64,000 bases of DNA from Nitrosovibrio sp. Nv4 (GCA_945906765.1 CAMDRF010000002.1:2313-66312), one strand, 5' to 3'. Positions 3,087 through 61,089 are shown, counted from the first letter of the stretch. Made by a program: numbers and translations. Notes: generated by a model from the sequence alone, not told the origin.

Positions 3087-4096
3087 ATGCCTGACTTTCC
3101 GTAGTTTGCGAGCGGCCGTGGCCGGCGCCAGAAACGGCGCAAGTCGCCGCGCGCTGTCTCGAAGGACGCGGCGGCGTCGGGAACGTGGATGGTCAGCATG
3201 CCGATGCGCCCCGATTTCAGCGCCGCGAGCAGCGGTGCGAACCATTGCGATTCCAGGTCCTGCAGCCGCCTCGCCAGCGCTTCGAAATCGCCCAGTGCAC
3301 GCACGCCGCGCAAGCCGTCGAGCACCAAGAGATGCCGCCCGTCTTCGGGCGCTCGCCCGAGCCAATCCGCGGCGCCGGCGCCCGGTGTCCGGTGGCGCAT
3401 TCCCGCAAGGCGTGCGAGGCCGATGGCGACCGGATCATCGGCGCTCACGGATTGCCAGGGGCCGCTCGCCGCGGCCGGCAGCTTTCCCGCGCCCCAGAGC
3501 CAGACGCTGTTGACCACCGGGTCGCCGCGCTGCTCGCGCGCCGTATTTGCCGGGTGTTCATACAGCGCCATCTGCAGTTCGGTGAGCAGGGGATGCCACT
3601 GTTTTGGCGGCAGATGCGGGTCGATGTTCTCGCCAGCGAGATCGACGGGAGGTTTCGCGCTGGCTTCGCTTTGCCCGTCAGCTTCGATCCGCAGGCACCA
3701 CTGATCGGGCCGCACCGCGTGCAGCGCAAATTTTCCGGCAAGCCATGGGGTCAACGCAGCCGCCAGGCTTTCCGCTTCCGCGGCCGTGACCGAAAACGCC
3801 TGGTTGGGCATCAGCAGCAGGCGGTCGCGGTCCGCGCGCAGGTGTACCGGGTCGGCACGCAGCCAGGGATCCGTGCCCGGGTCCAGGCCGTGCGCGTAGG
3901 CGGTGAGCGCGCCTGCGGGAATGGAAAGATCCTCAGCGTCGAACCCGTGCAAACCGAACGCCCGGCAAAGCCAGTTTTCCAGGCCGCCTTCCGGGCCGTT
4001 GGTCCGGCGGCTGCGCGCCAGCAACATCTCCAGCGCCGGCGCCGGCGGCAGGTCCTGCGCCGGGATCAGCGCCGGAACGACGAGTTCGAGATGCAT
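3083..4096 (-). CDS. conserved hypothetical protein (recalled as RpfE-type, a family often found next to recJ)
   Basis: ORF 3083..4522 trimmed to ATG 4096 (MHLELVVPALIPAQDLPP..), 337 aa. It is coupled to both neighbours: a TGATG overlap upstream and a TTGA overlap with recJ. The family name comes from memory only. Confidence 0.6.
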   Translation of the reverse strand: MHLELVVPALIPAQDLPPAPALEMLLARSRRTNGPEGGLENWLCRAFGLHGFDAEDLSIPAGALTAYAHGLDPGTDPWLRADPVHLRADRDRLLLMPNQAFSVTAAEAESLAAALTPWLAGKFALHAVRPDQWCLRIEADGQSEASAKPPVDLAGENIDPHLPPKQWHPLLTELQMALYEHPANTAREQRGDPVVNSVWLWGAGKLPAAASGPWQSVSADDPVAIGLARLAGMRHRTPGAGAADWLGRAPEDGRHLLVLDGLRGVRALGDFEALARRLQDLESQWFAPLLAALKSGRIGMLTIHVPDAAASFETARGDLRRFWRRPRPLANYGKSGI

Positions 4097-5535
4097 CAGT
4101 GGCGGACCGGTGGAATCCGCGCGCCCAGCTCGACCACCTTCGCGCGTCCTGATGAAAGGTGGCGCGCAAGAATTTTGTAGTGATCGAGGTCGAAGCGCGG
4201 CCGGATTTGTCCCTGGAGCAGTTCGCCGACGCCGTCTTCCGATTTCGCCGTACCGAGCAGGCACCAGTTGTCCACCACGTGCACTTCGGCGGCTTCCCGC
4301 TCGCGGTCTTCCTCGATGATGCCGATCGGCCCCCGCCAGGGCCAGGCGGCGGTTTTCAGGCCGGCCAGCGCCGCTGCGGCGCGCGCCAGATGGACCTGTG
4401 CGCTCTCCTGCCCGGCGCAGGCTCCGGCGCAGCGCTTGATCTGGTGGCGGAAACAGGCGCCGGGTTGGCCACTGCGGCCCCCCCGGTCGGAGAGATGCGC
4501 GAAGCCGAGCGTGCGCAGGCACAGGCGGTGCTCGTCCGCGACGCCGCGCAGGGCATCCATGGCGGATCGCTTCGAGCGGAACACGCCGCAGAGGCGCGAA
4601 ATAGTTGCCGAATTTATTTCCTCTTTTTTAACGAGTTTCAATTTATCCGAATCAAATACAAATCCACACAGGCCGCTCGCGCGCCTGAGCTGCCGGTTGA
4701 ACACGGGCAGCAGTTCCTTCACCAGCGCCGCTTCCAGCAGCAGCGCGCCCAGCTCGCCGCAGCTGCGCCGCCACTCGATGCGCCGGATCTCGCGCGCGAT
4801 CTGCGCCTCGCGCGGGGAGTGCACGTCGGCGGAGAAATGCTGCAACACGCGGCTGCGCATGGCGACGCTCTTGCCGACATAGAGCGGCGTGTCGTTCTCG
4901 CCGTAGAAAAGATAGACACCGGGCGATTCCGGGATCGCGTCGACGACTGTGCGGTCGATATGGGCGGGCAGCGCCGGCAACTGCGCCATCTGCCGTACCG
5001 CGCTTGCCATCGCCTCGGCGCCGTGCTCCTCGGTTGCCACGCGCAGGAACTGCCATACCGCCCTCGCATCGCCAAGCGCGCGGTGGCGCGAGTCGCAACG
5101 CAGTTGATGGCGGTCGATCAAGCTGTCCAGGTTGTGCCGCGCGTGTGCCGGATACAGGCGCCGCGACAGCTTTACCGTGCACAGCGTGCGTGCCTGGAAG
5201 CGCATCCCGGCGCGCTCGAAAGCGTGGCGCAGGAAGCCATAGTCGAAGCGCGCGTTGTGGGCGACGAAGATGCGCCCCTCGAGGCGTTCGTAGAGTCCCG
5301 GCGCGAGGTCTTCGAATTCCGGCGCGCCGGCCACCATCGCATTGGTGATGCCGGTGAGCGCCTGGATCGCGGGCGGGATCGAGGTGCCCGGATTCACCAG
5401 CGTGGACCATTCGGACAGCACCTCGCCCTGCGCAATCTCCAGCACCGCGATTTCGGTGACGCGATCCCAGGCAGGGTGCGCGCCGGTGGTCTCCAGGTCG
5501 ACGATCGCGAGCGGCGCGTCGAACAGCGGCTTCAC
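4096..5535 (-). CDS. DnaQ-like 3'-5' exonuclease fused to a GIY-YIG (Cho/UvrC-N-like) nuclease domain
   Basis: 479 aa. Exo motifs are LAIVDLETTG, VAHNARFDYGFL and HRALGDA. These are followed by GVYLFYGENDTPLYVGKS....R (GIY-YIG). Confidence 0.85.
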   Translation of the reverse strand: MKPLFDAPLAIVDLETTGAHPAWDRVTEIAVLEIAQGEVLSEWSTLVNPGTSIPPAIQALTGITNAMVAGAPEFEDLAPGLYERLEGRIFVAHNARFDYGFLRHAFERAGMRFQARTLCTVKLSRRLYPAHARHNLDSLIDRHQLRCDSRHRALGDARAVWQFLRVATEEHGAEAMASAVRQMAQLPALPAHIDRTVVDAIPESPGVYLFYGENDTPLYVGKSVAMRSRVLQHFSADVHSPREAQIAREIRRIEWRRSCGELGALLLEAALVKELLPVFNRQLRRASGLCGFVFDSDKLKLVKKEEINSATISRLCGVFRSKRSAMDALRGVADEHRLCLRTLGFAHLSDRGGRSGQPGACFRHQIKRCAGACAGQESAQVHLARAAAALAGLKTAAWPWRGPIGIIEEDREREAAEVHVVDNWCLLGTAKSEDGVGELLQGQIRPRFDLDHYKILARHLSSGRAKVVELGARIPPVRH

Positions 5536-5568
5536 GTCGCTTGATGGATATACATACAGTGGCGGACT

Positions 5569-6027
5569 CTACCGCAAAACCGTGGCGAGTTGCCAGAGCG
5601 CGAAGCCGAAGAGCGATTCGAGCGCCCTTTCTTCCGCAACGATCTGGAAGCGGTTCATGTAGCCGGCGAAAAAAAACAGCGCCGCGAGAGACAGAAGATT
5701 GGAAAGAAATATGCCCCAGCCGAGCAGCGCGAGCGCGAATCCGAGGTACATCGGGTTGCGCGTCAGGCCGTAGATGCCTCCGTCCACCAGCGAGGACGCG
5801 GCGCGGGGCTTGAGCGGATTCAGCGTGGTTCGCGCGCGGCGGAACTCGACAACGCCCGCGACAGTGGCCAGCGCGCCGATCAGCGCCGAGAGCACTGCCG
5901 CGGGCGTGCGGCCGGGGAGCGCCATATCCAGAGACGGAAGCGCCCACGCGATGGCCCACATCAGGCAGGCCGCGACGGCGACCACGATGACGGGGGGAAC
6001 CTTGAGTTCAAGCGACGAAAAATTCAT
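5569..6027 (-). CDS. isoprenylcysteine carboxyl methyltransferase (ICMT/PEMT-like) membrane protein
   Basis: 152 aa and multi-TM. The segment GIYGLTRNPMYLGFALALLGWG is typical of the ICMT/phospholipid methyltransferase family. Confidence 0.75.
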   Translation of the reverse strand: MNFSSLELKVPPVIVVAVAACLMWAIAWALPSLDMALPGRTPAAVLSALIGALATVAGVVEFRRARTTLNPLKPRAASSLVDGGIYGLTRNPMYLGFALALLGWGIFLSNLLSLAALFFFAGYMNRFQIVAEERALESLFGFALWQLATVLR

Positions 6028-6036
6028 GCCCCGATT

Positions 6037-6475
6037 TTATAGGGCGGCGATGATCCAGCCTTCGCAAAGGCAAACATCCGCAGGGATGCCAAAGCGTGGT
6101 TTTCTAGATGCCCAAGCGGCTTGGGTTGCGCAAAGAATTGCGTCCAGGATGTCCCCGGTTCCGTCCAGCAAGGCGCGGTCTCCAATTGCTTTCGATATCT
6201 GAACCGCTACGCCAAGAGACCTGGATAAGCTTCGAGAGCGATCTTGCCGGAAGCGGTTTCGTTCAGCAGTGGAATGCGAATGCCGTGAGAAAGCAGGCGC
6301 CAGGCTCCTTCATAGAACATTCTCCCGACGGGCGGGTTGGTATTTGTCTTGAGAGGGCTGTGCGATCCTGCCCTAAGGTCGGTACGACGGTGCTTGTCTT
6401 CTGGTGCCTTCGCCGCCATGAAGGCGCTCATCCCCGACTGAACCGTGCACGCGAGCTTTCCTCTCAGTTACCACC
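6037..6475 (-). pseudogene. DUF429 protein, middle and C-terminal fragments (frameshifted)
   Basis: The frame of ORF 6207..6431 gives ..EDKHRRTDLRAGSHSPLKTNTNPPVGRMFYEGAWRLL..KIALEAYPG. After the stop at 6207 a different frame continues ..GDILDAILCATQAAWASRKPRFGIPADVCLCEGWIIAAL*, ending at 6037. There is no N-terminus here. Confidence 0.6.
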
Positions 6476-6738
6476 CCGACATCGCCTGAAGCCGCCCGCG
6501 AGGAGGGCGGTCGTTTTCGCATGCGCCCGCGCTTGCGCGGGATTCCCACGCCGATTCCTTACCGCCAGGGGCGGGCGGCGCGGATAAATTTGCCCATCGC
6601 TCGGCGGAACTCGCGGCCAGCAGGAGAATCAGCCATGCGATGACCGATCCGGGGATGGCGTAGTATATCGGTTCACATTGTAAAATTTAGCGTGCCCGCC
6701 CCTATCCGATCGCGCCGCACAATCATCAGGGTTCCCGA

Positions 6739-7455
6739 ATGATCCGAACCGGTACGCTGGAAAAGGCGCGCGCCGAGCGCCGCCATCACATCCTTCCCAA
6801 CGGCACCGGGTACTGGCGCAACGGTTTGATCGCATCGCCGCCGGAGGACGCCGTCGCCCCGCAAGCCTTCCTGGTGGAGCAGGACCCCGGCACCGTGATC
6901 GAGCCGCATTTCCACCTGGAAAACGAATTCCAGGTGATGGTCGGCGGCAGCGGCTCGCTCGGACGGCATTGCGTCGAGCCCGTCAGCGTCCACTACGCCG
7001 GCGCGCATACCGGTTACGGGCCGATCACGGCGGGAAGCGACGGACTGTCCTACTTCACCCTGCGGGCACGGATGGACTCCGGCGCCCAGTTCCTGCCCGG
7101 CGCGCGCGACAAGATGCAACGAGTGCCCAAGCGGCATCTCCTCGGTCATGCCGTCCGTCCCTGCGAAGCGTCCGACCTGGCCGCGCGGCGCGAATCCGAA
7201 GTCGTCACGGTTCTCGAACCCGAGGCCGGCGGGATGGCCGCATGGATGCTCCGGCTTTCCGCCGGCGGCACCGCCGCCGCGCCGGTGCACCCGGGCGGCG
7301 GCCGCTTTCTGCTGGTCATCGGCGGCGTGCTGGAGCTGAACGGCGAGCGGCTGCCGCGGCTCTCGACGGTGTTCGTCTCCGCCGAATCGCCTGCGCCGCA
7401 GCTGCGCGCGGGCAACGAAGGCTTGGAGGTGCTGGTGCTGCAATTTCCGTCGTGA
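6739..7455 (+). CDS. cupin-fold protein, function unknown
   Basis: 238 aa. The metal-site-like stretch EPHFHLENEFQVMVGGSG suggests a cupin barrel. GTGA overlap with the next gene. Confidence 0.6.
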   Translation: MIRTGTLEKARAERRHHILPNGTGYWRNGLIASPPEDAVAPQAFLVEQDPGTVIEPHFHLENEFQVMVGGSGSLGRHCVEPVSVHYAGAHTGYGPITAGSDGLSYFTLRARMDSGAQFLPGARDKMQRVPKRHLLGHAVRPCEASDLAARRESEVVTVLEPEAGGMAAWMLRLSAGGTAAAPVHPGGGRFLLVIGGVLELNGERLPRLSTVFVSAESPAPQLRAGNEGLEVLVLQFPS

Positions 7456-8417
7456 GATCGATTTTCTTCCTGGCGGCATGCGCGTTCGCTGGACTGGCGC
7501 TCGCCCAGCCCGCCGCTCTTCCCGCATATCCCGCAAAGCCGCTCCGGATGATCGTCCCTTTCCCGCCGGGCGGCGTGACCGACGTCATGTCGCGCGCCGT
7601 GGCGGCCCGGCTTTCGGGCGAGATCGGCCAGCCCGTGGTCGTGGAAAACCGCGCCGGGGCCAGCGGAATCATCGGGGCCGAAGCGGCCGCGAAGTCGCCC
7701 CCTGACGGCTACACCCTCCTGATGGGCAACATCTCTACGCTCGCGGTCAACGCGGCCATGTTTGCGAAGCTGCCCTATGATCCCGTCGCAAGCTTCGCGC
7801 CGGTCAGCATGGTCGCCATCCAACCCCTGCTCGTCGCGGTGCATCCGTCGGCGCCGGTGCAGTCGATCCCCGAGCTCGTCAGCATGGCGAAATCAAAGCC
7901 GGGCCAGCTTTCCTACGGCACCGCCGGCAGCTCGATTCATCTCGCGGTGGAGTTCTTTTCCAGCGCCGCCGGCATCCGCATGAACCACGTGCCCTACAAG
8001 GGAAGCGCGCCCGCCATCACCGACCTGATCGGCGGCCAGCTGCAGGTTTTGTTCGACCCGTTTTCGACGCTCTACCCGCAGGTGCGTGCGGGTAAGGCGC
8101 GCGGCCTGGCGGTCACGACGGAGCGCCGCTCCCCGGTGGCGCCCGAACTGCCGACCGTCTCGGAGCTCGGGTTCAAGGGCTTCGACGTCAGCTCATGGCA
8201 GGGGCTGGTCGTTCCGGCCGCAACGCCGAAGGAACTCGTGGAGAGGCTGCACCGCGAGACCGTCAAGGTTCTGGCGTCTGCGGAAATCAAGGAGCAGTTC
8301 GCGAAGCATGGCGCCGAAGCCGCGCCGACGACGCCGGAGAAGTTCGGCGAATACATCCGCGGGGAAATCGCCCGCTGGCAGAAGGTCGCGCGCGATGCCG
8401 GCGTAAAACCTGAGTAA
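7452..8417 (+). CDS. Bug/TctC-family tripartite tricarboxylate transporter substrate-binding protein
   Basis: ORF 6969..8417 trimmed to GTG 7452 (signal peptide VRSIFFLAACAFAGLALAQP). Family hallmarks PLRMIVPFPPGGVTD, ENRAGASG and YGTAGSSIHL. Confidence 0.85.
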   Translation: MRSIFFLAACAFAGLALAQPAALPAYPAKPLRMIVPFPPGGVTDVMSRAVAARLSGEIGQPVVVENRAGASGIIGAEAAAKSPPDGYTLLMGNISTLAVNAAMFAKLPYDPVASFAPVSMVAIQPLLVAVHPSAPVQSIPELVSMAKSKPGQLSYGTAGSSIHLAVEFFSSAAGIRMNHVPYKGSAPAITDLIGGQLQVLFDPFSTLYPQVRAGKARGLAVTTERRSPVAPELPTVSELGFKGFDVSSWQGLVVPAATPKELVERLHRETVKVLASAEIKEQFAKHGAEAAPTTPEKFGEYIRGEIARWQKVARDAGVKPE

Positions 8418-8444
8418 GCAATTGCGCAAACAGGAGGAATAATC

Positions 8445-9413
8445 ATGAGAGTTGTTGCCGCATTCATTGCCTTCGCGTGCATGGTATCGGGCGCGCCCGC
8501 CGCGCTCGCGCAGGCCTTTCCGTCGAAGCCCGTTCGAGTCATCGTGCCCGCGCCGCCGGGCAGCGCGCCCGACTTTCTGTCGCGGCTGCTCGCACCGAAG
8601 CTGGGCGACATGTGGGGGCAGCCGCTCGTCATCGACAACGTGCTGGGCGCCGGCGGCAACATCGGCACCGAGCGCGCCGCCAAGGCACCGGCGGACGGCT
8701 ATACGCTGCTCTTCAACACGATCGGCCCGATCGGCGTGAACATCAGCATGTATTCCAATCTATCCTTCGATCCGGTCAAGGACTTCGCGCCGATCACGCT
8801 GGTTGCCAAAGTGCCCAACATCCTGGTCGTCCATCCGAGCGTTCCGGTGAAGAGCGTCCAGGAGCTGATCGCCTACGCCAGGCAGAACCCCGGCAAGCTG
8901 CGCTACGGCTCACCCGGCAGCGGCACCTCGAACCACTTGTCCGCCGAGCTGCTGAAGCTCATGGCAGGCATCGACCTTCTGCACATCCCCTACAAGTCGA
9001 GCGCGCAAATGACGACCGACATCCTCGGCGGCCAGGTGGAGGTGGTGTTCCACAACGCGCCGGTGCTGCTACCGCACGTGAAGTCGGGCGCGTTGCGCGG
9101 CCTGGGCATCACCAGCGCGACGCGCAATGCGTCCGCGCCCGAGCTCCCGTCGATCGCCGAAGCCGGCGTGCCCGGCTTCGAAGTCACCGCATGGTTCGGG
9201 TTCATGGCCCCAGCCAACACCCCGCCGGCCGTGGTGAACAAGATCCACGCCGACGTGGTGAAAGCGATGGCGCTCCCCGACGTGCGGGAGCGCATGCTCC
9301 TTCAGGCGGCCGAGCCGGTGGGCAGCACGCCGCAGGAGTACGCGGCCTTCATCGCCTCCGAGATCGTCAAGTGGGCAAAGGTCGTGAAGCAGTCCGGCGC
9401 GAAAGTCGAATGA
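8445..9413 (+). CDS. Bug/TctC-family substrate-binding protein (second paralog)
   Basis: 322 aa with SD AGGAGG upstream. Signal peptide, then PVRVIVPAPPGSAPD, DNVLGAGG and YGSPGSGTSNHL. Confidence 0.85.
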   Translation: MRVVAAFIAFACMVSGAPAALAQAFPSKPVRVIVPAPPGSAPDFLSRLLAPKLGDMWGQPLVIDNVLGAGGNIGTERAAKAPADGYTLLFNTIGPIGVNISMYSNLSFDPVKDFAPITLVAKVPNILVVHPSVPVKSVQELIAYARQNPGKLRYGSPGSGTSNHLSAELLKLMAGIDLLHIPYKSSAQMTTDILGGQVEVVFHNAPVLLPHVKSGALRGLGITSATRNASAPELPSIAEAGVPGFEVTAWFGFMAPANTPPAVVNKIHADVVKAMALPDVRERMLLQAAEPVGSTPQEYAAFIASEIVKWAKVVKQSGAKVE

Positions 9414-9414
9414 T

Positions 9415-10539
9415 CTAGCGGCCTGGCAGCTCTGCCACTGCCGTTGCGAACGCCGAGCGCTCGCCGTCCTGGTTGACCGCGAGCATCTCGAACTCGGCGT
9501 AATTCTTGCCGTCCTGCTCGAATTTCCCCGTCACGCTGCCGTCGATGTAGAGCGTGTCGCCTTCGGGATTGTGGCGGCGGATCTCGCAATACAGCTTGTG
9601 CAGCATGCCGTCGTCACCGATCCAGTTGGTGATGTAGTGGCTCATCCAGGAGCAGCGCTCCGGTCCGTAGTCGTAGGCGTCCGGGGCGCCGACCTTGAGC
9701 GCCATCTCCTGCTCCCAGTGCACGCGCTCGGGGACATCCGGGATGCCGAAGCGGTTCTTGATCCCGGCCTTGGGATGCTTTTTCATGAGCTGCCACGCGA
9801 GCTTGTGCGCCCGGATGTAGAGACCGCCCCAGCCCTGCGCGTACGCGATGAAGCCGGTGACCGTCATCGGCCCTTTCACCATCCGCGGCAGCTTCGTGCC
9901 TACGGCGACGTCTTCCCAGTACCGCGGGGTCGCGCCGCGGACCTCCTCCTGCTCGTACAGCGCGTAGATCTTGCGCAGCTCCTCGTCCGTGTAGACCTTC
10001 TGTGGCTTGTTCTTGAGGTCCTTGTACTTCGTGCCGGACTCGCGGGCGATGTCGCGGTCGGTGCGGAAGCACCAGGTGTCGGCGGCGGCGAGGAGCTCGC
10101 CGTTGCCGTCGTGGAAATCGACGTGGTAGATCTGCTGGATCGAGCGGCCGGCGAACTTGGTCTCGTGCGCGATCAGATCCTTGAGGTAGGCGCTCGCCTT
10201 GATCGGGGTGTTGCGCAGGATGGGCTTGTGCCACGTGAAGTCGCAGCCCGCGTACATGGCATGCACGCCCGGCAGGCCGCCGACGTAGCCGCTGACGATG
10301 CGGTCGCAGGCCAGCAGGAAGGAAGGCGGCGCGATGACCTCGCCGTACCTGGTTTTCTTGGCATAGCCGGGATCGCACCAGAGCGGGTTGTCGTCGCCGA
10401 TGCCGTGCGCGTAATGCCGGATGTTGTCGCGCGTGGCCTCATAGCACCACGGCTCCACCGTGTCCTCGATCTTGACGCCGATGCGCTGCCGCAGCTCGTC
10501 CAGCGCCTGGTCGGTGATGCCGATAAATTCCCGCTTCAT
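9415..10539 (-). CDS. double hot-dog MaoC-like (R)-specific enoyl-CoA hydratase/dehydratase
   Basis: 374 aa. The N-terminal half resembles the FAS1-like/MaoC_N dehydratase fold and the C-terminal half a MaoC hot-dog. ATGA overlap with the upstream synthetase gene. Confidence 0.7.
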   Translation of the reverse strand: MKREFIGITDQALDELRQRIGVKIEDTVEPWCYEATRDNIRHYAHGIGDDNPLWCDPGYAKKTRYGEVIAPPSFLLACDRIVSGYVGGLPGVHAMYAGCDFTWHKPILRNTPIKASAYLKDLIAHETKFAGRSIQQIYHVDFHDGNGELLAAADTWCFRTDRDIARESGTKYKDLKNKPQKVYTDEELRKIYALYEQEEVRGATPRYWEDVAVGTKLPRMVKGPMTVTGFIAYAQGWGGLYIRAHKLAWQLMKKHPKAGIKNRFGIPDVPERVHWEQEMALKVGAPDAYDYGPERCSWMSHYITNWIGDDGMLHKLYCEIRRHNPEGDTLYIDGSVTGKFEQDGKNYAEFEMLAVNQDGERSAFATAVAELPGR

Positions 10540-12074
10540 GGTTTTCTCCTAAGCTCGCGCAGTGCCTTGCGATTGACCTTGCCCGCGGGCGTCTTCGGCA
10601 GCTCGCCGACCAACTCCACCTGCCGCGGATACTCGTGCTTGCTCAGCCGTTCCTTCATGAACGACTGGATGTCCTCGACCACGTCCGCCCGCGCGTCGCG
10701 CGCGACGATGTAGGCCTTGGCGACCTGCCCGCGCAGCGGATCCGGCACGGCCACCACTGCGGCTTCCAGCACCGCGGGATGCTTCAGCAGGGTGTTCTCG
10801 ATCTCGAGCGCGCTCATCGTCCACCCAGCGGAGATGATCACGTCATCCGACCGTCCCTCGATGTAGAAGTAGCCTTCCTCGTCGGTGTAGCCGCGGTCCT
10901 TCAGCGGGAACCACTTGCTTTTCTTGCGGACCGAGATCTCCCCGGTCTGCAGGGGGGCCAGCTCGTCGCCCGCCGCGTCGAGAATGGCCATTTGCGCGCC
11001 GGGCACCGGTTTGCCGAGCGAGCCCGGCTTGATGCGGTAACCGTCGAGTCCGGGATAGTTCACCATCACCACGCCGACCTCTGTCGTGCCGTACATGCTG
11101 GCCGGGGTGACGCCGAACGCCTGCTCGACCCACGCCATGGTCTCGCTGTCCATCGGCTCGCCGGCATATGAGATTTTATTCAGACCGATCTCGTACTTTT
11201 CCCTTAGCCCCGAATTACGCAGCATCCGGAAAACAGTCGGTGCCGCGGCGACGTTGCTGATCTCGAACTCCTGCAGCGCCTCGAAGATGCGCTGCGCATC
11301 GAACTTGCCCGAGTAACTCGCGGTGCGAATGCCGAGCGCGAGCGGCGAGATCGTGCCGTGCGACAGGCCGTGCCCCCACGCGGGGGACGACGGGCAGAAG
11401 TAGCGGTCGCCGTGCCGCAGGCCCAGCCCGTACAGCGCCGCGACCATCAGCGTGACCACGGCGCGATGCGTGTGCTTCACCGCCTCCGGCAGCTCGCGCG
11501 TCGTGCCGGAGGTGTACTGAAACAGCGCGTAATCCGAGGCGCTGGTGGTGGCAACGTATGCGGATTTTTCCGCAGCAAGCTCGGCCCAGAACGCGTCATC
11601 CGCGCGCACTACCTGCGTGTCCGGGAACTGCGTGCGCATCGGCTCCGGATCGGACTGCGTGAGGATCAGCTTCGGCTTGCAGTCATTGATGCGCAGCGCG
11701 AGCCCCTCGGGACCGAACAGCGTGAACATCGGCACCGCGATGGCGCCGTACTTCATGGCGCCGAACATGCCGACGTAGAAGGCGCGCGAAGGCTCGACGA
11801 TGACGGCGACGCGGTCGCCCTTCGCGATGCCGCGGCGCTCGAGCCAGTGGGCGAAGCGCCCGGTGAGGTCGGCGAGCGTCGCGAAGTCGTAGTGCTCGCT
11901 GCGGCCGTCGGCGAACTTGACGCTGATCGCGGTGCCCTTGCCCCGGTGGCGGTCGATGCACTCGTGGGCGAGGTTCATGCGGGCCTCGTTGCCATCGAAA
12001 AGCGCCCAGAGCTTTTCCCACGAGAAGCCGCGCAGCACCTCGTCGTAGGTGGTGAGGTCGAGAATGCTGTTCAC
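10536..12074 (-). CDS. AMP-dependent acyl-CoA synthetase/ligase
   Basis: The 782-aa ORF is trimmed to GTG 12074 (VNSILDLTTYDEV..), which overlaps the transferase stop as GTGA. Motifs YGTTE, GRSDDVIISAGWTMS and PKTPAGKVNRKAL. The A3 motif is atypical (YTSGTTRELPEAV instead of TSGTTGxPKG). Confidence 0.85.
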   Translation of the reverse strand: MNSILDLTTYDEVLRGFSWEKLWALFDGNEARMNLAHECIDRHRGKGTAISVKFADGRSEHYDFATLADLTGRFAHWLERRGIAKGDRVAVIVEPSRAFYVGMFGAMKYGAIAVPMFTLFGPEGLALRINDCKPKLILTQSDPEPMRTQFPDTQVVRADDAFWAELAAEKSAYVATTSASDYALFQYTSGTTRELPEAVKHTHRAVVTLMVAALYGLGLRHGDRYFCPSSPAWGHGLSHGTISPLALGIRTASYSGKFDAQRIFEALQEFEISNVAAAPTVFRMLRNSGLREKYEIGLNKISYAGEPMDSETMAWVEQAFGVTPASMYGTTEVGVVMVNYPGLDGYRIKPGSLGKPVPGAQMAILDAAGDELAPLQTGEISVRKKSKWFPLKDRGYTDEEGYFYIEGRSDDVIISAGWTMSALEIENTLLKHPAVLEAAVVAVPDPLRGQVAKAYIVARDARADVVEDIQSFMKERLSKHEYPRQVELVGELPKTPAGKVNRKALRELRRKP

Positions 12075-13246
12075 CCGCCAGCGCCTTTTTCTTTCAGCTT
12101 GCAAATCTCCTCTCCGCTGAATCCTGCGGCGAGCAGGATCTCGCTCGTGTCGGCGCCAAGGCGCGGCGGCGCGCGCCGCACGCTGCCCGGGGTGCGGCCG
12201 AGCTTCACGGCGACGCCGAGCCCGCGGTAGCCGTCTTTTTCGACCACCATGTCGCGCGCCACGGTGTGCGGGTGCTGCAGCGCCTGCGGCACCGAGTGAA
12301 CCGGTCCGGCGGGTACGCCAGCCGCCATCAGGTGCTCGCACAGCGGACCCGCATCCTCTTTCGCGAAGACTTTTTCCAGCTCTTGCCGCAGCTGCGCCCG
12401 ATTCTCGAGCCTGGGCCCGTTGCGCGAGAACCGCGGGTCCTCGAGCAGGTCTCCGCGGCCGATGAACCGGCACAGCTTGGCGAACTGCCCGTCGTTCACC
12501 ACCCCGAGGAACATCTCGCCGCTGCCGGTGCTGAACTTCTCGTACGGGCTGATGCTGGGATGCGCGCTCCCCGTGAGCTTCGGCGTGACGCCCGAGGCGA
12601 ACCAGTTGGCCGCGTGCGGATGCAGCAGGGCCATGGCGGTGTCGTAGAGGCTGCAATCGACCAGCTGGCCGCGCCCGGAGCGCTCGCGCTCCGACAGGGC
12701 GAGCAGAATGCCGAACGCGGCGGACAATCCGGTCGCGAGATCGATGATCGGCACGCCGACCCGCGTCGGACCGGTGCTGTCGTCCCCGTTCACGCTCATC
12801 AGGCCGCACATCGCCTGCAGCACGGCGTCGTAGCCCGGCAGGTTGCCGAGCGGACCGGTGGCGCCGAATCCGCTGATGCGGCAATACACCAGCCGCGGCA
12901 AGCGCGGCGCGAGAACCGCGTCATAGCCAAGCCCCCACTTTTCCATCGTCCCGGGCAGGAAGTTCTCGATCAAGACGTCCGCGTCCTGCAGCAGCCGCAA
13001 AAGCGCGTCACGCGCTTCGGGCCGGCCCAGGTCGAGCGAGAGACTAAGCTTGTTCCGGTTCAGGCCGGTGAAGTACGCGGCGGTGCCGTCGACGAACGGC
13101 GGGCCGAGCTTCCTCGTTTCGTCTCCCTGCGGAGACTCGACCTTGATCACCAGGGCACCGTGGTCCGCCAGCATCTGGGTGCAGAAGGGCCCGGCCACGA
13201 CACGCGTCAGGTCGACAACGCGTTTGCCTTCCAGTGCTCCGCTCAT
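12071..13246 (-). CDS. family III (CaiB/BaiF) CoA-transferase
   Basis: ORF 12071..13372 trimmed to ATG 13246 (MSGALEGKRVVDLTRVVAGPFCTQMLADHGA..), 391 aa. The catalytic-Asp region is LPGYDAVLQAMCGLMS. Confidence 0.85.
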   Translation of the reverse strand: MSGALEGKRVVDLTRVVAGPFCTQMLADHGALVIKVESPQGDETRKLGPPFVDGTAAYFTGLNRNKLSLSLDLGRPEARDALLRLLQDADVLIENFLPGTMEKWGLGYDAVLAPRLPRLVYCRISGFGATGPLGNLPGYDAVLQAMCGLMSVNGDDSTGPTRVGVPIIDLATGLSAAFGILLALSERERSGRGQLVDCSLYDTAMALLHPHAANWFASGVTPKLTGSAHPSISPYEKFSTGSGEMFLGVVNDGQFAKLCRFIGRGDLLEDPRFSRNGPRLENRAQLRQELEKVFAKEDAGPLCEHLMAAGVPAGPVHSVPQALQHPHTVARDMVVEKDGYRGLGVAVKLGRTPGSVRRAPPRLGADTSEILLAAGFSGEEICKLKEKGAGG

Positions 13247-13384
13247 CAACGGATTTTCTTGGAGCAGCCAGCTGAAGAGGCGATGAGCAGCGAGCGCGAT
13301 TTTAAAATGTAAAACATACGAGGGACGCAGAGCATCGTCGACATTGTGGGTTCCAACTGCGGAATTGTCCACATGGACACACCG

Positions 13385-13617
13385 GAGGCGATTACCGAGA
13401 AGTGCTCAGACGACATCAATCCTTTTTTTCGCGCCTGCTCGATGACCCGCGAGAACAGCTCTCGGATCACGTCATGCTCCAGCAGCCGCTCCGGCGGGAT
13501 CGAATCGCGACCGCTCGCCGCGTGCATCTGCTCAAACGTCTGGTCCATTTCGCGCAGATGGTAGAGCGGATCGTGAAGCGCTTCGCGCCGGAGAGAGTCA
13601 TTCTCTTCGGGTCGCAT
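13385..13617 (-). mobile_element. transposase fragment (DUF772-type N-terminal region of IS5/IS1182-family transposases), internally deleted
   Basis: ..SGRDSIPPERLL directly joined to VIRELFSRVIEQARKKGLMSSEHFSV. In intact transposases of this type (recalled ..GRPSIPPE.LL.. and ..QAR..GLLSDEHF.VDGT) these blocks lie about 100 aa apart. No DDE domain follows. Confidence 0.5.
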
Positions 13618-13790
13618 GCCACGCGAAAAGCGGGGTCCGACAGCGACAGCGACAGCGATCTGCTCGTTGTCATGCCTCTGAAGCGCACGAAGGCGGCGCT
13701 CGAAGGACGCGTGCTGTATGCGAAATGCTGAGGGCGCTCTCGCCGTCTTGCGGGAGTGGATTGCCAGGGCGGAGAACGACCCGCTTAGTG
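13540..13790 (+). pseudogene. MNT nucleotidyltransferase antitoxin fragment plus about 25-codon stub of its HEPN partner
   Basis: ..VERIVKRFAPERVILFGSHATRKAGSDSDSDSDLLVVMP matches the minimal nucleotidyltransferase core (GS..(D)xD). The overlapping ATG at 13718 opens MRNAEGALAVLREWIARAENDP, which is HEPN N-terminus-like. The similarity is then lost. Confidence 0.5.
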
Positions 13791-14035
13791 ACCATTTCAG
13801 GCCACGTGCCTGTCCAATTCTGTTGCTTTACGAATCTCTCCGGGAGTCCGAACCGAAAATCGAATCCGCCGATCCAACTATCGTCCGCACCGAGCCATAG
13901 TTCGTAGGCAGGCCAGTCCGAGAACTCCAAAATCGTCGTCACCATCGGTTCTCGATTCAACGTACAGACCGCAACAGTGATTTTTTTGTCGCGTTTTGGC
14001 GCAGATGTGAAATCGACCCCGACAATTTTCGTCAT
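13670..14035 (-). pseudogene. DUF429 protein, N-terminal fragment
   Basis: MTKIVGVDFTSAPKRDKKITVAVC...DSWIGGFDFRFGLPERFV fits the DUF429 N-terminus. Only the first 80 or so codons (about 14035 to 13790) look genuine. The rest of the ORF is antisense to the HEPN/MNT fragments. Confidence 0.6.
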
Positions 14036-14093
14036 GGCCGCTTAAGCGTGACCCAGAGGATCGCGTCGAAAATGCCGCGCGGCGCCGCGGCGA

Positions 14094-14579
14094 TCAGGAT
14101 TTCGAACAGGCGGCGAGCTCGGCGGCGGATAGGTTCCGGATGCGGCCGAAACCGGCGACGAAGCGCGCGTCGCGCGGCACGATGCGCCAGAAGGAAAAAT
14201 CCGCGAGCTCGAAATTGATGGCTTGTGCCGGGAAGCGAAGCAGCCATAGACGCTTGAGGTCCGGTTGCTCTCCCTCGAGCTGTTGCGCATTGCCGCGAAT
14301 TGAAATTCTCTTGAAGGTAAAAGGATCGGCGCGGCCGTCATCCGTCTCGGCGATCGAGAGCGCGATGCGCGGGTCCTGCGCCATGTCCTGGGTATGCCAG
14401 GCGAGGCGGCTGACGTGGACATGGAATGCAGTGAATCCTTCATCGGGCAGATAGAGGGTCATCGAAGCCATCGGCGCGTCCTGGCGCAGCGTCGCCAGAT
14501 GCGCGATGCGCTCGCCGCGCAGCAGGCGGGCGAGGGCCGCCGCGTCGTCCCCCGGAAGGTTCTTGTCCATGCATGCCAT
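14094..14579 (-). CDS. pyridoxamine 5'-phosphate oxidase-like FMN-binding split-barrel protein
   Basis: The 426-aa ORF is trimmed to ATG 14579 (MACMDKNLPGDDAAALARLLRGERIAHLATL..), 161 aa. General PNPOx/HugZ-like pattern. Confidence 0.6.
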   Translation of the reverse strand: MACMDKNLPGDDAAALARLLRGERIAHLATLRQDAPMASMTLYLPDEGFTAFHVHVSRLAWHTQDMAQDPRIALSIAETDDGRADPFTFKRISIRGNAQQLEGEQPDLKRLWLLRFPAQAINFELADFSFWRIVPRDARFVAGFGRIRNLSAAELAACSKS

Positions 14580-14603
14580 TCTAGTATCGAGTATCCTCGA
14601 CGC

Positions 14604-15845
14604 GTGCGTTACGAGCTCCTCGTCGGCCTGCGCTACACCCGCGCCAAGCGCCGCAACCACTTCATCAGTTTCATTTCGGCGATCTCGATGGCGGGCATCG
14701 CGCTGGGGGTCGCCGCGCTGATCGTGGTGCTCTCGGTGATGAACGGCTTCCAGAAGGAACTGCGCGCCCGCATCCTCGGCGTCGCCTCGCACGTGCAGAT
14801 CAGCGGCCCGGACAACCAGCTCGCCGACTGGCAGTCGGTGGCGAAAATCGTCATGCAGGACCCGCGCGTCAAGGGCGCGGCGCCGTTCGTCAATGCGCAG
14901 GGGATGCTCGCGGCGGGCCAGGCGGTGCGCGGCAGCGTGGTGCGCGGCATCATTCCGCAGCGCGAGGCGCAGGTGGCGGAGATCGGCCTGCACATGCGCG
15001 CAGGCTCGCTCGAGGCGCTCAAGGCCGGCGAGTTCGGCATCGTGCTTGGCTCGGAGCTGGCGCGCGCGCTTGGCGCGCTGAGCGGAGACAAAGTGGCGTT
15101 GATCGCGCCGCAGGGACTGGTGACGCCGGCCGGCGTGATCCCGCGCCTGAAGCAGTTCACCGTGGTCGGCCTGTTCGAGGTCGGCATGTTCGAATACGAC
15201 TCCGGCCTCGCGCTGGTGCACCTGGAAGACGCGCAGAAGCTCTACCAGATGGGCGACGCGGTGTCGGGGGTGCGCTTGAGGCTGGACGATCTGTTCGCCT
15301 CGCGCTCGGTGGCGCGTGACCTGATAGCGAAGCTGGATCCTTCCTATTTCGCCACCGACTGGACGCGCAGCCACGCCAATTTTTTCCGCGCGGTGGAGAT
15401 CGAGAAGCGCGTGATGTTCATCATCCTGCTGCTGATCGTCGCGGTGGCGGCGTTCAACATCGTCTCCACGCTGGTGATGCTGGTGACCGACAAGCAGGCC
15501 GACATCGCGATCCTGCGCACGCTGGGGGCCTCGCCGGGTTCGATCGTGCAGATCTTCATGGTGCAGGGCGCGCTGATCGGCGTCATCGGCACCTTCGCGG
15601 GCCTGGTGCTCGGCGTGCTGGTCGGCTTCAACGTCGATACCGTGGTGCCCTTCGTCGAGAACCTGCTCGGCTTCAAGTTCCTCGCCAAGGACATCTACTA
15701 CATCTCCGACCTGCCCTCGGACGTGCAGCTGGGCGATGTGACGACCATCGGCATCGTCTCGCTGGTGCTGTCCTTCATCGCCACTTTGTACCCGAGCTGG
15801 CGCGCTTCCCGCACCAACCCGGCGGAGGCGCTCAGATATGAGTGA
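14604..15845 (+). CDS. lolC: lipoprotein-releasing ABC transporter permease LolC/LolE
   Basis: GTG 14604 ([25 protein letters not shown]..), 413 aa. MacB-like FtsX topology, followed by lolD with an 8-nt overlap. Confidence 0.9.
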
Positions 15846-16515: not shown

Positions 16516-16593
16516 TGCTGGTGCGGCGACTGTAGTTCGGGTTCGCCGCGTACTACGATGGTTTTTGCAGGCATGGCGAACTGTGGAGGCATC

Positions 16594-16918
16594 ATGGATG
16601 CGATTTCGGTGGAACAGCTCATCAAGGAGTCCGGGCAAGCTGATCGAGGGCGCCGAAAACGGCCAGCTTGCGGTGGTCACCAAGGCGGGCCGCCCGCTGT
16701 TTCTCGCCGTGCCTTACGACGAGCGCCTGGCGGAGGAGGATGTGCACGTCGCCGTCGCGGTGCGTCTGTACGAGAGCGACGCCGTGAGCCTCGGCAAGGG
16801 CGCGAGAATCGCGGGGCTTTCGACGAGCGAATTCATCGACTGGCTCGGCGCGCTGCAGATTCCCGTCATTCGCTATTCCGCCGAGGAGCTCGAGCGGGAA
16901 CTCGCCGCGTTTGGCTGA
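16594..16918 (+). pseudogene. Phd/YefM-like plus UPF0175-like fused antitoxin, frameshifted near 16633
   Basis: ATG 16594 gives MDAISVEQLIKESG, then the frame must shift to continue KLIEGAENGQLAVVTKAGRPLFLAVPYDE (Phd pattern). Next comes ..LYESDAVSLGKGARIAGLSTSEFIDWLGALQIPV (UPF0175 pattern). The span is 325 nt, which is not a multiple of 3. An in-frame ATG at 16598 could still express an N-terminally scrambled product. Confidence 0.6.
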
Positions 16919-16955
16919 GATCGTCGTCGCGGACGCGGGGCCGCTGATTGCGTTC
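16911..16955 (+). pseudogene. 15-codon stub of a DUF3368-type PIN toxin
   Basis: TTG 16911 overlaps the antitoxin stop and encodes MAEIVVADAGPLIAF, the typical PIN/DUF3368 N-terminus. Similarity ends exactly where the CRISPR-like repeat begins. Confidence 0.5.
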
Positions 16956-16984
16956 GTGTTCCCCGCGTGCGCGGGGATGAACCA
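16956..16984 (+). repeat. solitary type I-E-like CRISPR repeat (no array)
   Basis: GTGTTCCCCGCGTGCGCGGGGATGAACCA is 29 nt. It has the same architecture as the recalled E. coli I-E repeat GAGTTCCCCGCGCCAGCGGGGATAAACCG: a CCCCGC/GCGGGG stem, a 4-nt loop and an AT(G/A)AACC tail. I saw no second copy in the window. Confidence 0.6.
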
Positions 16985-17123
16985 TCGGCCTGAACGGCGC
17001 GATCCTGGGCTACGTGATCTCGATCGAGCGGCGCCTGACGCGCCTTGAGACTTTCCAGGAGGTCCGGCGCGCGCCGCGCCAGGCGGCGGTACAATGATTC
17101 CCTTCGATCCGGTAGGGGGTTCG

Positions 17124-17282
17124 ATGAGCAAAGCACCGAAGCAAAAAGCGAGCGCGCGCCGCGGCGGCCGCGTGCACTACGTGACGATCCGCGGCAAGAA
17201 AATCAAGACCACGGCACGAGGGGCGCGTATGTTTCGCGCTGTCACGCGGGCGCTGAAGGGCGTAGACGTACCGCCGCCTTGA
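17124..17282 (+). CDS. small basic protein in the antitoxin position upstream of vapC (unclassified)
   Basis: ATG 17124 (MSKAPKQKASARRGGRVHYVTIRGKK..), 52 aa. Its stop overlaps the vapC TTG start as TTGA. No recognisable antitoxin fold. Confidence 0.4.
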   Translation: MSKAPKQKASARRGGRVHYVTIRGKKIKTTARGARMFRAVTRALKGVDVPPP

Positions 17283-17684
17283 TCTACCTCGTTGATGCAA
17301 ACGTCCTGGTGCACCTGGCCAACCGGGTGTCCGGGTCCGAGCGCATACTCGCCCGGTATGACGCGCAGCCGCGCGGCCGGGTGCGGCTTTCCGCCGCGAC
17401 GGCGCACGAGCTGCGCTTCATGATCCTGATGGCGAAGGCCTCCGCGAAGCACGTCGCGAGCCTCGACTCGATCGCGCGCGCGTATCCGGTCGAGCCCTTC
17501 GAGCTGGCCGCGGCCGCACGCCGCGGCCGACGTGCGGTATCAGCTCGAAATCGCCGGCAAACGGCTGGGCATCTTCGACATGCTGCTCGCGGGTCATGCG
17601 CGGTGCTTGGGCGCCACGGTGGTCAGCGATGATGCGGACTTTGACCGGGTGCCCGGCCTGAAAACCGAAAACTGGCTGCGCTGA
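17279..17684 (+). pseudogene. vapC: PIN-domain toxin VapC, frameshifted near 17520
   Basis: LIYLVDANVLVHL...SAATAHELRF...VEPFELAAAA is in one frame and ..ADVRYQLEIAGKRLGIFDMLLAGHARCLGATVVSDDADFDRVPGLKTENWLR* in another. The span is 406 nt (3n+1). All four PIN acidic positions are recognisable. Confidence 0.75.
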
Positions 17685-17712
17685 GCGCGGCCGCGGGGCA
17701 CGAACTCAGCGT

Positions 17713-17907
17713 TCACCGCTTGCCGTGGTTTGCGATCAGTGCGCGAATCTTCGCGAAGACTTCCTCGGCCGGGATGCCTTTGGTGTTTCCAGCCTCGAAG
17801 TCGGTGATGCGCCGGGAAATTTCCTCATCCCACGCCCGCGCGATTTCCTCCGGCGCGCCCTCCGGTTCGCCGTCGATGCTCTCGATCACCGTGCCAGCCA
17901 ACTGCAA
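17713..17907 (-). CDS. Unstab_antitox (TIGR02574-like) addiction-module antitoxin, N-terminally shortened, no toxin partner
   Basis: ..PEEIARAWDEEISRRITDFEAGNTKGIPAEEVFAKIRAL aligns with the C-terminal two thirds of the neighbouring paralog at 18027..18251. The N-terminal helix is missing and no toxin gene lies downstream. Confidence 0.55.
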   Translation of the reverse strand: MQLAGTVIESIDGEPEGAPEEIARAWDEEISRRITDFEAGNTKGIPAEEVFAKIRALIANHGKR

Positions 17908-17911
17908 TGTC

Positions 17912-18026
17912 GCTTCGCCCAGTAATCCGGTCGCCGGCTAGGGTGAGCGAGCGCAAGAACGTCAAGTACATCGCCGCGGACGCGATAAATCGGCGTGTAC
18001 GGAAATCGCTTGAATACGAAACCGCT
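17912..18026 (-). pseudogene. C-terminal fragment of a RelE/ParE-family toxin
   Basis: Directly after the antitoxin stop the same frame reads SGFVFKRFPYTPIYRVRGDVLDVLALAHPSRRPDYWAKR, the conserved RelE/ParE C-terminus. The N-terminal half is missing. Confidence 0.6.
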
Positions 18027-18251
18027 TCAACGCAGCTTGGCGCGCAGCCCCGCCATAAGCTGTTCGGAAGGAATGGTTTCGACCTCTCCGCTGTCGATCT
18101 GCGCGATGCGGCGTTCGATCTCGGCGTCCCAGGCGGCCGCCACCTCTTCAGGCGTGTCGACGCTTATCCAGAGCTTGTCGGCGAGATCGGCGCGTTCCTC
18201 CGCGGAGAGCCGCATCGCTTCGGCGGCAATTTGTTCGTAGGTGAGTGACAT
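18027..18251 (-). CDS. Unstab_antitox (TIGR02574-like) addiction-module antitoxin
   Basis: ATG 18251 (MSLTYEQIAAEAMRLSAEERADLADKLWISVDTPEEVAAAWDAEIERRIAQIDSGE..), 74 aa. Confidence 0.75.
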   Translation of the reverse strand: MSLTYEQIAAEAMRLSAEERADLADKLWISVDTPEEVAAAWDAEIERRIAQIDSGEVETIPSEQLMAGLRAKLR

Positions 18252-18370
18252 AACCGCTCCTTGAGGCGAAAGCTTGCCCGGAATTCTATTCCGGATTGGA
18301 AGGAATTTCAGCCTATGCCAGAACCCAGCGGCGAGTCGAGAGACCCGATGCCGATTTCCGCCCTTTCGCA

Positions 18371-61012: not shown

Positions 61013-61089
61013 AGGCGCGTAGCTCAGCTGGTTAGAGCACCACCTTGACATGGTGGGGGTCGTTGGTTCGAGTCCAATCGCGCCTACCA
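61013..61089 (+). tRNA. tRNA-Val (anticodon GAC)
   Basis: Hand-folded cloverleaf. Acceptor AGGCGCG/CGCGCCT, D arm GCTC-AGCTGGTTA-GAGC, anticodon arm CCACC-TTGACAT-GGTGG, T arm GTTGG-TTCGAGT-CCAAT, and an encoded ACCA. Confidence 0.9.

Follow-up and report, generated by a model that had tools for sequence, protein, structure and literature searches.

The stretch of DNA analyzed here, 64,000 nucleotides catalogued under Nitrosovibrio sp. Nv4 (GCA_945906765.1 CAMDRF010000002.1:2313-66312) and referred to below as the window, is a chromosome segment with a GC content of 65% and a betaproteobacterial, Burkholderiales-like character. It holds a gene of the DUF429 family that is broken into three pieces, all of them on the minus strand, with about 7.3 kb of other DNA between the first piece and the remaining two. 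Listed from right to left and in coordinates of the whole 64-kb window, these are an N-terminal fragment (13784 to 14035), which comprises codons 1 to 84 and includes the first-strand motif VGVDFTSAP; a middle fragment (6210 to 6467), which comprises codons ~86 to 171; and a C-terminal fragment (6037 to 6218), which comprises codons ~207 to 265 plus the stop codon and includes the motif GDILDAILCA.

The pieces were delimited by tblastn, with the intact DUF429 proteins P0001, P0002, and P0007 (265/266 aa) as queries against the window. Three separate minus-strand pieces, lying in three different frames of that strand, were recovered: residues 2 to 83 of P0002 aligned to 14029 to 13784 (85% identity, E = 1e-45, with E values for this piece ranging from 1e-45 to 6e-47), residues 85 to ~171 aligned to 6467 to 6210 (E = 2e-41), and residues ~208 to 264 aligned to 6216 to 6043 (E = 2e-28), while no further DUF429 match with an E value of ≤0.1 was found anywhere in the 64 kb. 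The pieces thus share strand and order and tile without overlap, as the preliminary description had proposed, and the positions given there (14035 to ~13790, ~6475 to 6207, and 6206 to 6037) proved right to within ~10 bases. At the DNA level (blastn), the N-terminal piece is 80% identical to nucleotides 3 to 242 of the intact gene in metagenome contig L002 and 73% identical to nucleotides 1 to 252 of its counterpart in L001; the middle piece is 84% identical to nucleotides 277 to 510 of the L002 gene, with weaker similarity extending back to about nucleotide 256, and the C-terminal piece is 82% identical to nucleotides 617 to 798. Relative to P0002, the pieces show 80 to 84% identity in DNA and 70 to 85% identity in protein.

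Assignment of the pieces to DUF429 took an indirect route. Alignment to the family profile PF04250, through which the tiling was to have been confirmed according to the preliminary description, gave no significant match; among the fragments and their concatenate, only the C-terminal piece matched at all (12.7 bits, E = 0.11, cutoff of 23), and the tiling was instead established by comparison with full-length homologues. Such a low score is unsurprising, since the PF04250 model gives weak scores to this subfamily and only pieces of the gene were tested. Since the closest intact homologue, P0002, does pass the gathering score (36.6 bits against the same cutoff of 23, profile positions 1 to 205 of 214; P0007 reaches 31.8 bits), the pieces were assigned to the family on its authority. 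When 5.8 billion proteins were searched with the concatenate, 5904 homologues were obtained at an E value of ≤1e-3; nearly all of the best 120 of these carry PF04250, and the best full-length DUF429 homologues (265 to 268 aa) show 61 to 68% identity over 99 to 100% of the query. A scan of GTDB species-representative genomes, among which the species of the window is not represented, yielded three loci only with the reconstructed protein, at 48% identity.

DUF429 has been assigned to clade D of the RNase H-like superfamily, together with RuvC-like resolvases, as a probable nuclease (Majorek et al. 2014, PMC3985635). Candidate catalytic residues of the RNase H-like domain are expected in strand 1, strand 4, and the C-terminal helix; in the window, this domain is split after codon 84, has lost about 38 codons (~172 to 209), and is spread over three frames. 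Truncated and frameshifted relative to the intact orthologues of 260 to 266 aa at the syntenic locus, the window gene is, as judged from its sequence, a nonfunctional pseudogene. Five unique substitutions were counted at 88 sites that are invariant in 25 homologues (compared with 0 to 2 per homologue), and three of the five adjoin the break. Aside from the break and the deletion described below, the fragments are well preserved, so the disruption does not date back very far in comparison with the divergence from the L001/L002 lineage.

On the upstream side of the break, homology to DUF429 stops at 13784 (...GAAATGGTCACTAAG, codon 84), or perhaps a few bases beyond, 13775 being the furthest possible limit. 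The open reading frame (ORF) that begins with MTKIVGVDFTSAP at 14035 reads on through the adjoining 52 bp of right-hand junction DNA (13732 to 13783) and ends at a stop at 13670. On the downstream side, homology is clear from 6443 onward, with weaker, in-frame similarity (AGA GGA AAG versus GGA GGC AAA) extending to ~6465, and the first ~10 codons of the middle fragment are scrambled by small indels. The insert consequently spans 6468 to 13783, ~7.3 kb, leaving no more than ~9 bp of the gene unaccounted for, so that the base-level bounds that had been claimed for the segment hold to about 9 bp only. No target-site duplication was visible at the break when the junctions were aligned to intact DUF429 genes. 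Two short minus-strand ORFs (6431 to 6207 and 6171 to 6037) cover the downstream half of the pseudogene.

The middle fragment ends at an out-of-frame stop (6207 to 6209), and the reading frame does shift at the boundary with the C-terminal fragment, as had been noted; the cause, though, is not a simple frameshift but a deletion. In overlapping blastn alignments, the 9 nucleotides CTCTTGGCG (6218 to 6210; query positions 343 to 351) match the intact L002 gene at two places, 502 to 510 (CTCCTGGCG) and 617 to 625 (CTCTTGGCG), from which it follows that the 115 nucleotides between two 9-bp direct repeats were lost and one copy was kept. This single remaining copy (6210 to 6218, minus strand) is the scar of a classic short-repeat deletion, which took out ~38 codons and shifted the frame.

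Upstream of the pseudogene lies a PNPOx-family gene (14094 to 14570, minus strand, 158 aa; PF01243, E = 6.5e-7), a conserved neighbor that serves as an anchor for synteny; its product is 86 to 88% identical to the PNPOx proteins of L001, L022, and L023, in all three of which it adjoins lolCE. Relatives lacking the insertion (L001, L022, L023, L005, and L006) carry a contiguous DUF429 gene at this very position, and together with the tiling of the pieces, this bears out the proposal that one DUF429 gene was split by ~7.3 kb. The best empty-site reference is L022 (NCBI metagenome-assembled genome [MAG] GCA_025358705.1), obtained through a search for PNPOx homologues, in which the order is DUF2062...KefB, LolD, LolCE, PNPOx, DUF429 (260 aa, intact), LysE, an 86-aa ORF, TctC, and Cho, followed by a 314-aa protein, RecJ, a methyltransferase, and KTSC. 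At the protein level, identity to the window is 86% for LolD, 94% for LolCE, 86% for PNPOx, 84% for Cho, and 79% for p337. In L001 (95% for LolCE and 86% for PNPOx), the order is PNPOx-orf167-DUF429-LysE-TctC-p337-RecJ, in L023 it is PNPOx-DUF429-LysE, and in L002 it is DUF429-(LysE relic)-TctC-Cho; L005 and L006, which are more distant, likewise have DUF429 at the syntenic site, and in the window population itself (L015), the flanks to either side are the same. By parsimony, we infer that a contiguous DUF429 gene at this position represents the ancestral state and that the insertion is derived. The ancestral order is PNPOx-(orf)-DUF429-LysE-TctC-Cho. A degenerate pattern for the empty-site DNA across the break, run against JGI metagenome contigs, found only the already-known contig L003.

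Elsewhere in the same flank, about 1.85 kb with antitoxin-like ORFs separates LolD from KefB (window ~16516 to 18370, mapped from L015 2170 to 4024), including matches to PF03683 (UPF0175, ~16598 to 16918) and PF09720 (Unstab_antitox, ~18027 to 18251). KefB and LolD abut in L022, and this stretch is likely another lineage-specific insertion near the DUF429 locus.

The split structure recurs throughout the population from which the window derives. Exact-protein lookups retrieved 11 contigs for the ICMT-like protein encoded downstream of the pseudogene and 8 contigs for the MaoC-like protein encoded within the insert, with identical gene order in all of them; these come from ENA assemblies (ERZ27280223, 224, 196, and 197), Logan assemblies (ERR3719144, ERR3719140, ERR5863107, and ERR5863117), and an NCBI MAG (GCA_947485155.1). 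Compared with window positions 5400 to 14800, the 11 contigs are 99.7 to 99.99% identical (≥99.87% in all those that exceed 1 kb in length). The right junction is spanned by contigs from at least four assemblies and the left junction by at least seven contigs, and none of the contigs found for the window population showed an empty-site allele. The split structure is real and fixed in this population, being neither an assembly artifact nor a rare variant.

The insert itself carries six ORFs that are full length relative to their homologues. Three form an operon on the minus strand, which starts with a family III CoA-transferase gene (12071 to 13246, 391 aa, intact; PF02515, matched on the identical L007 gene) and continues with an AMP-binding acyl-CoA synthetase gene (10536 to 12074, 512 aa, intact; PF00501, PF13193, and NCBIfam) and a gene for a MaoC/FAS1-like acyl dehydratase (9415 to 10539, 374 aa, intact; PF13452). 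On the plus strand are two genes for Bug/TctC-family periplasmic binding proteins, one of 322 aa (8445 to 9413, intact; PF03401, again matched on the identical L007 gene) and one called at 289 aa (7548 to 8417; PF03401 and ORF list), the true start of which may lie earlier, since the ORF extends upstream, and an intact gene for a cupin-like protein of 238 aa (6739 to 7455; weak Pfam cupin matches, Cupin_7 at E = 8e-5). The CoA-transferase resembles succinate-glutarate CoA-transferase (E = 6e-95), a match that, like all NCBIfam matches of the cargo genes, falls below the equivalog cutoff. The closest copy of the CoA-transferase-synthetase-dehydratase set is found in L019 (84% nucleotide identity), between unrelated genes; there, the individual products are 87.5%, 83%, and 87% (P0121) identical to those of the window, respectively, and homology stops exactly at the CoA-transferase start (window position 13247). 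In L020, a cupin homologue of 44% identity heads a cupin-CoA-transferase-synthetase-MaoC-TctC operon, so that the same five functions occur there codirectionally in one operon. Both TctC genes of the insert are only 42 to 45% identical to the syntenic TctC of relatives and are thus paralogues rather than a relocated syntenic copy. The cargo genes are typical of Burkholderiales, their best homologues being found in Burkholderiales or in betaproteobacterial metagenomes. Judging by the predicted functions, the cargo is a coherent and self-contained accessory module by which a carboxylic acid of some kind would be taken up and undergo CoA activation or hydration.

At its left-hand end, upstream of the cupin gene, the insert has a noncoding spacer of ~270 bp (6468 to 6738), which resembles neither DUF429 genes nor the right end nor anything else in the window. 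Within this spacer, at 6480 to 6560, inspection by eye, without folding, showed two GC-rich sequences of the hairpin-forming kind (cccgcgc-aa-gcgcggg and gccgcccgcgaggagggcggtc). Near the right-hand edge, a 530-bp stretch without intact genes separates the N-fragment ORF from the CoA-transferase gene, and between the start of the latter and the DUF429 break lie two relics. One is the remnant of an insertion sequence (IS) transposase of the IS5 family (13348 to 13590, minus strand), of which ~75 of 366 residues are left, with an internal deletion and without the C-terminal catalytic part. In a tblastn search of plasmids, the relic peptide matched 81 records annotated "IS5 family transposase" (~48% identity, E = 2e-5), and residues 116 to 168 of WP_062174050.1, a 366-aa IS5-family transposase, align to window positions 13491 to 13348; an upstream stretch reaching to ~13590 (GRDSIPPERL versus GRPSIAPEKL), joined through the internal deletion, was aligned by eye. 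The other is the remnant of an MNT-type nucleotidyltransferase gene (13558 to 13731, plus strand; minimal nucleotidyltransferase/antitoxin-like), which retains ~57 aa out of roughly 100 to 114 and matches only the N-terminal ~45 residues of the profiles (PF01909, E = 1.4e-4, positions 6 to 43 of 93; PADLOC candidate PDC-S09, E = 1.5e-6, positions 18 to 58 of 114).

Taken together, these findings make it very likely that a single-copy DUF429 gene, now dead, was split by a 7.3-kb insertion and subsequently eroded by deletions. The ancestor of this Burkholderiales population would have had a single-copy DUF429 gene (~265 aa, encoding a predicted RNase H-like nuclease) between the PNPOx-family gene and LysE-TctC-Cho, and a segment that now measures 7.3 kb would have entered it between codons 84 and ~86, at the expense of no more than ~9 bp of the gene. 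Because of the eroded pieces of IS5 transposase and nucleotidyltransferase at the right edge, the vehicle was most likely a mobile element, either a unit bounded by IS copies or a small islet, the mobility genes of which would since have been whittled away by deletions. The same deletional decay would account for the loss of 115 bp from the downstream half of DUF429, of a small upstream gene, and of the syntenic TctC, and the LysE interior would have been replaced by an ICMT-like coding sequence. As such, the locus presents an ordinary case of insertional pseudogenization, in an interval prone to rearrangement, and reveals no new kind of element or mechanism. Of the possible vehicles, an IS5-linked element is the foremost candidate, if a tentative one; erosion of a larger islet and translocation within the genome are less likely routes.

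Several observations weigh against this reconstruction. The tetranucleotide composition of the insert (r = 0.979) is no outlier among other 7.3-kb windows (0.970 to 0.990), and a composition so much like that of the host gives no sign of a foreign origin. Repeat searches and end-to-end alignment detected neither terminal inverted or direct repeats nor a target-site duplication at the two ends, and the inverted-repeat score observed end to end was reached by 59 of 300 shuffles. The IS5 relic is also set away from the junction, with the nucleotidyltransferase relic and the 52 bp of junction DNA in between, and a near search of PLSDB with the whole insert revealed no plasmid carrying a close copy. 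Finally, no relative closer than ~86 to 95% protein identity in the flanking genes, and no intermediate state, was found in the searched collections, the PNPOx homologue search likewise returning none closer than ~90% identity. A distant plasmid search with the relic zone yielded nothing useful, and neither a second IS5 copy nor other copies of the end sequences were detected within the 64-kb window. The segment had been described beforehand as acquired and devoid of an integrase: indeed, no integrase ORF is present in 6468 to 13783, but given the host-like composition and the lack of terminal repeats or a target duplication, the claim of acquisition goes too far, the transposase relic notwithstanding.

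That the donor of the insert was the same genome rather than another one deserves more weight than any other alternative. A resident catabolic cluster could have moved into DUF429 by recombination or transposition with IS5 copies, which would amount to translocation and not to horizontal transfer. The match in composition between the insert and the rest of the window, the typical Burkholderiales nature of the cargo genes, and the presence of the IS5 relic all fit such a move; against it, the 64 kb of genome examined holds no second copy of IS5, whereas the occurrence of the closest CoA-transferase-synthetase-dehydratase copy in another context (L019) concerns another organism and does not discriminate. 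On balance, we regard an intragenomic move as somewhat unlikely. The idea that the pieces are what partial deletion has left of two DUF429 paralogues, lying 7.3 kb apart by chance, can draw on the existence of two very divergent DUF429 allele types among relatives (see below) and otherwise only on the bare fact that the fragments are separate. It is effectively refuted, because pieces that cover residues 1 to 84, ~86 to 171, and ~207 to 265 without overlap, in conserved order and on one strand, and that show the same divergence (80 to 84% nucleotide identity) from one intact gene, exclude two paralogues; moreover, the correct ancestral flanks are still in place, with the orf167 tail and PNPOx beside the N-terminal piece and the LysE start beside the C-terminal one.

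A chimeric contig would be a natural suspicion for a source that is evidently metagenomic, yet the same junctions occur in independently assembled ENA, Logan, and NCBI MAG contigs, which leaves an assembly artifact with a negligible probability. Hardly any more credit can be given to a regulated, excisable element whose removal would restore DUF429, in the manner of the skin element or phage regulatory switches. While the gene break, clean to ~9 bp, might suggest as much, those systems bring their own recombinase and an excision that restores the ORF, and the insert has neither: no recombinase or flanking repeats were found, the transposase is a 20% relic, no empty-site allele turned up among the population contigs, and the 115-nucleotide frameshifting deletion downstream means that excision could not restore the gene.

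The surroundings of the gene have decayed as well. Downstream of the pseudogene lies an ICMT/PEMT-like ORF of 152 aa (5569 to 6027, minus strand; PF04191), which led to the earlier suggestion of an ancestral PNPOx-DUF429-ICMT operon. This suggestion did not survive comparison: no relative has ICMT at this site, most having LysE, then TctC, and then Cho. Since the ORF keeps both the start codon and the tail of LysE, it is a later replacement, an in-frame chimera in which a near-complete ICMT-like coding sequence fills the shell of the LysE gene. The context of its start (TAAAATCGGGGCATG) is the same as at the DUF429-stop/LysE-start of L001, and over its 3' end, stop codon, and 3' flank (5612 to 5545), it shares 76 to 78% identity with the 3' end of LysE in L001 and L006 and with the L002 relic (blastn; compared regions 5763 to 6410, 9601 to 10311, and 2049 to 2116, respectively). 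The LysE tail begins at 5612 and measures at most 14 codons, of which 11 residues, FALWQLATVLR, clearly align. Correspondingly, ICMT homologues of ~153 aa align solely to residues 4 to 143 of the window ORF, the closest representative being 59% identical, and the alignment has the native ICMT tail (...FGxEYxxYxxxVRRWL, ~10 residues) replaced by that of LysE. Compared with the ICMT/PEMT families (PF04191/PF04140), in which a full-length methyltransferase would have the native C-terminal tail, the ORF matched PF04191 over residues 44 to 141 (profile positions 6 to 103 of 105, E = 3e-9), its last ~10 residues being LysE derived. L002, too, lacks the LysE interior, keeping a tail relic of ~70 nucleotides between DUF429 and TctC (2024 to 2131), which means that LysE was lost on more than one occasion.

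Two further genes of the ancestral order are represented by scars. Between the LysE 3' flank and the start of the Cho-like exonuclease gene (4096 to 5535, minus strand), the syntenic TctC has been cleanly deleted (compare L006 10296 to 11300 and L022 8664 to 9622), leaving an intergenic scar at 5536 to 5568 (minus strand; comparison with L001, L006, and L002). On the other side, a relic of 58 bp (14036 to 14093, minus strand; blastn versus L001 and L006) is what remains of orf167, a gene without a family match that is present in L001 (4463 to 4966) and L006. It keeps the last ~12 codons and a 22-nucleotide internal piece: window positions 14068 to 13986 correspond to L001 4930 to 5012, and the 22-nucleotide piece corresponds to L001 4776 to 4797 (blastn), two remnants that imply two short-repeat deletions. 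In this lineage, decay has affected all of the interval from PNPOx to Cho, the DUF429 split being one of at least five scars.

DUF429 itself has also changed at this site. Two allele types, only ~42% identical to each other, occupy the same syntenic position, while the flanking proteins are 84 to 95% identical. The low-GC type (0.50 to 0.57, in genomes of 0.62 to 0.66 GC) is found in the window, L001 (4963 to 5763), and L002 (1226 to 2023), and the type with normal GC (0.63 to 0.64) is found in L022 (6961 to 7743) and L023 (1437 to 2222), which suggests in situ xenologous replacement or strong diversification. Various neighbors come and go at the site as well, namely, orf167 or DUF2459, LysE, the 86-aa ORF, TctC, and a GST-like gene. 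In another Burkholderiales lineage, with the order PNPOx-DUF2459-DUF429, L021 (10001 to 10747) has a DUF429 protein of 248 aa that lacks the C-terminal GDxLDA region, a truncation that may reflect independent decay of the same gene.

From this turnover, together with the in-frame exchange of an ICMT coding sequence into LysE, one could imagine the PNPOx-Cho interval to be a hotspot of recombinase-independent gene exchange centered on DUF429, a proposal that we nevertheless hold to be improbable. If it were true, turnover like that of defense or conflict genes would suggest such a role for this DUF429 nuclease, and the cargo would have landed where it did since the site is permissive or recombinogenic. 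With PADLOC, the type B allele weakly matches PDC-S44 (E = 8e-4), which is insufficient to call it a defense gene.

For practical purposes, the scar bounds the 7.3-kb cargo to within ~9 bp, and the block arrived after the split from the nearest sampled relatives. Annotations of the population MAGs should enter DUF429 as a pseudogene, omit the ORFs of 121 and 74 aa, and identify the ICMT ORF as chimeric. The locus also provides a clean example of how short-repeat deletions erode a disrupted gene together with the mobile element that accompanies it. Of broader interest is a single lead, namely, that DUF429 alleles turn over to an unusual degree while their site stays fixed, hinting at a conflict-related role for an uncharacterized nuclease family.

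Among known systems, the locus most resembles insertional pseudogenes created by IS-associated DNA, with which it shares an intact syntenic orthologue in relatives, collinear halves on one strand, foreign-looking relics (IS5 transposase and nucleotidyltransferase) at the edge, and later frameshifting deletions. In contrast to a simple IS disruption, 7.3 kb of intact metabolic cargo is present here, without recognizable ends, a target duplication, or a working transposase. Composite transposons with catabolic genes offer a second parallel, in that catabolic and transport cargo lies beside IS transposase sequence inside a chromosomal gene; however, only one IS relic is present, located internal to the right end, with no second copy and no inverted repeats, and the intact transposase, terminal repeats, and target duplication of an IS or composite transposon were all lacking, so that membership was not established. 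Nor does the insert have the hallmarks of an integrase-type genomic island (a site-specific recombinase, a tRNA or att-site flank, and deviant composition), as neither an integrase, nor a flanking tRNA, nor deviant composition was found. Tests for tRNA-linked integration were negative, Rfam and tRNA scans of the window giving only tRNA-Val. This tRNA-Val(GAC), at 61013 to 61089, is the sole Rfam or ARAGORN match in the window and is unrelated to the insertion.

The deletion within the downstream half conforms to microhomology-mediated (slipped-strand) deletion, with 115 nucleotides lost exactly between two 9-bp direct repeats and one copy retained, and has nothing unusual about it; the orf167 relic shows similar short-repeat deletions, and so, when inspected by eye, does the transposase relic. 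As for the DUF429 family, the window gene belongs to it by way of its intact homologues and keeps the N-terminal GVDF and C-terminal GDxLDA motifs, differing from other members in being, by all appearances, nonfunctional. DUF429 has been described as unlikely to be mobile and as having a conserved genomic context (Majorek et al. 2014, PMC3985635); against that account stand the two ~42%-identical allele types that occur at this locus among close relatives.

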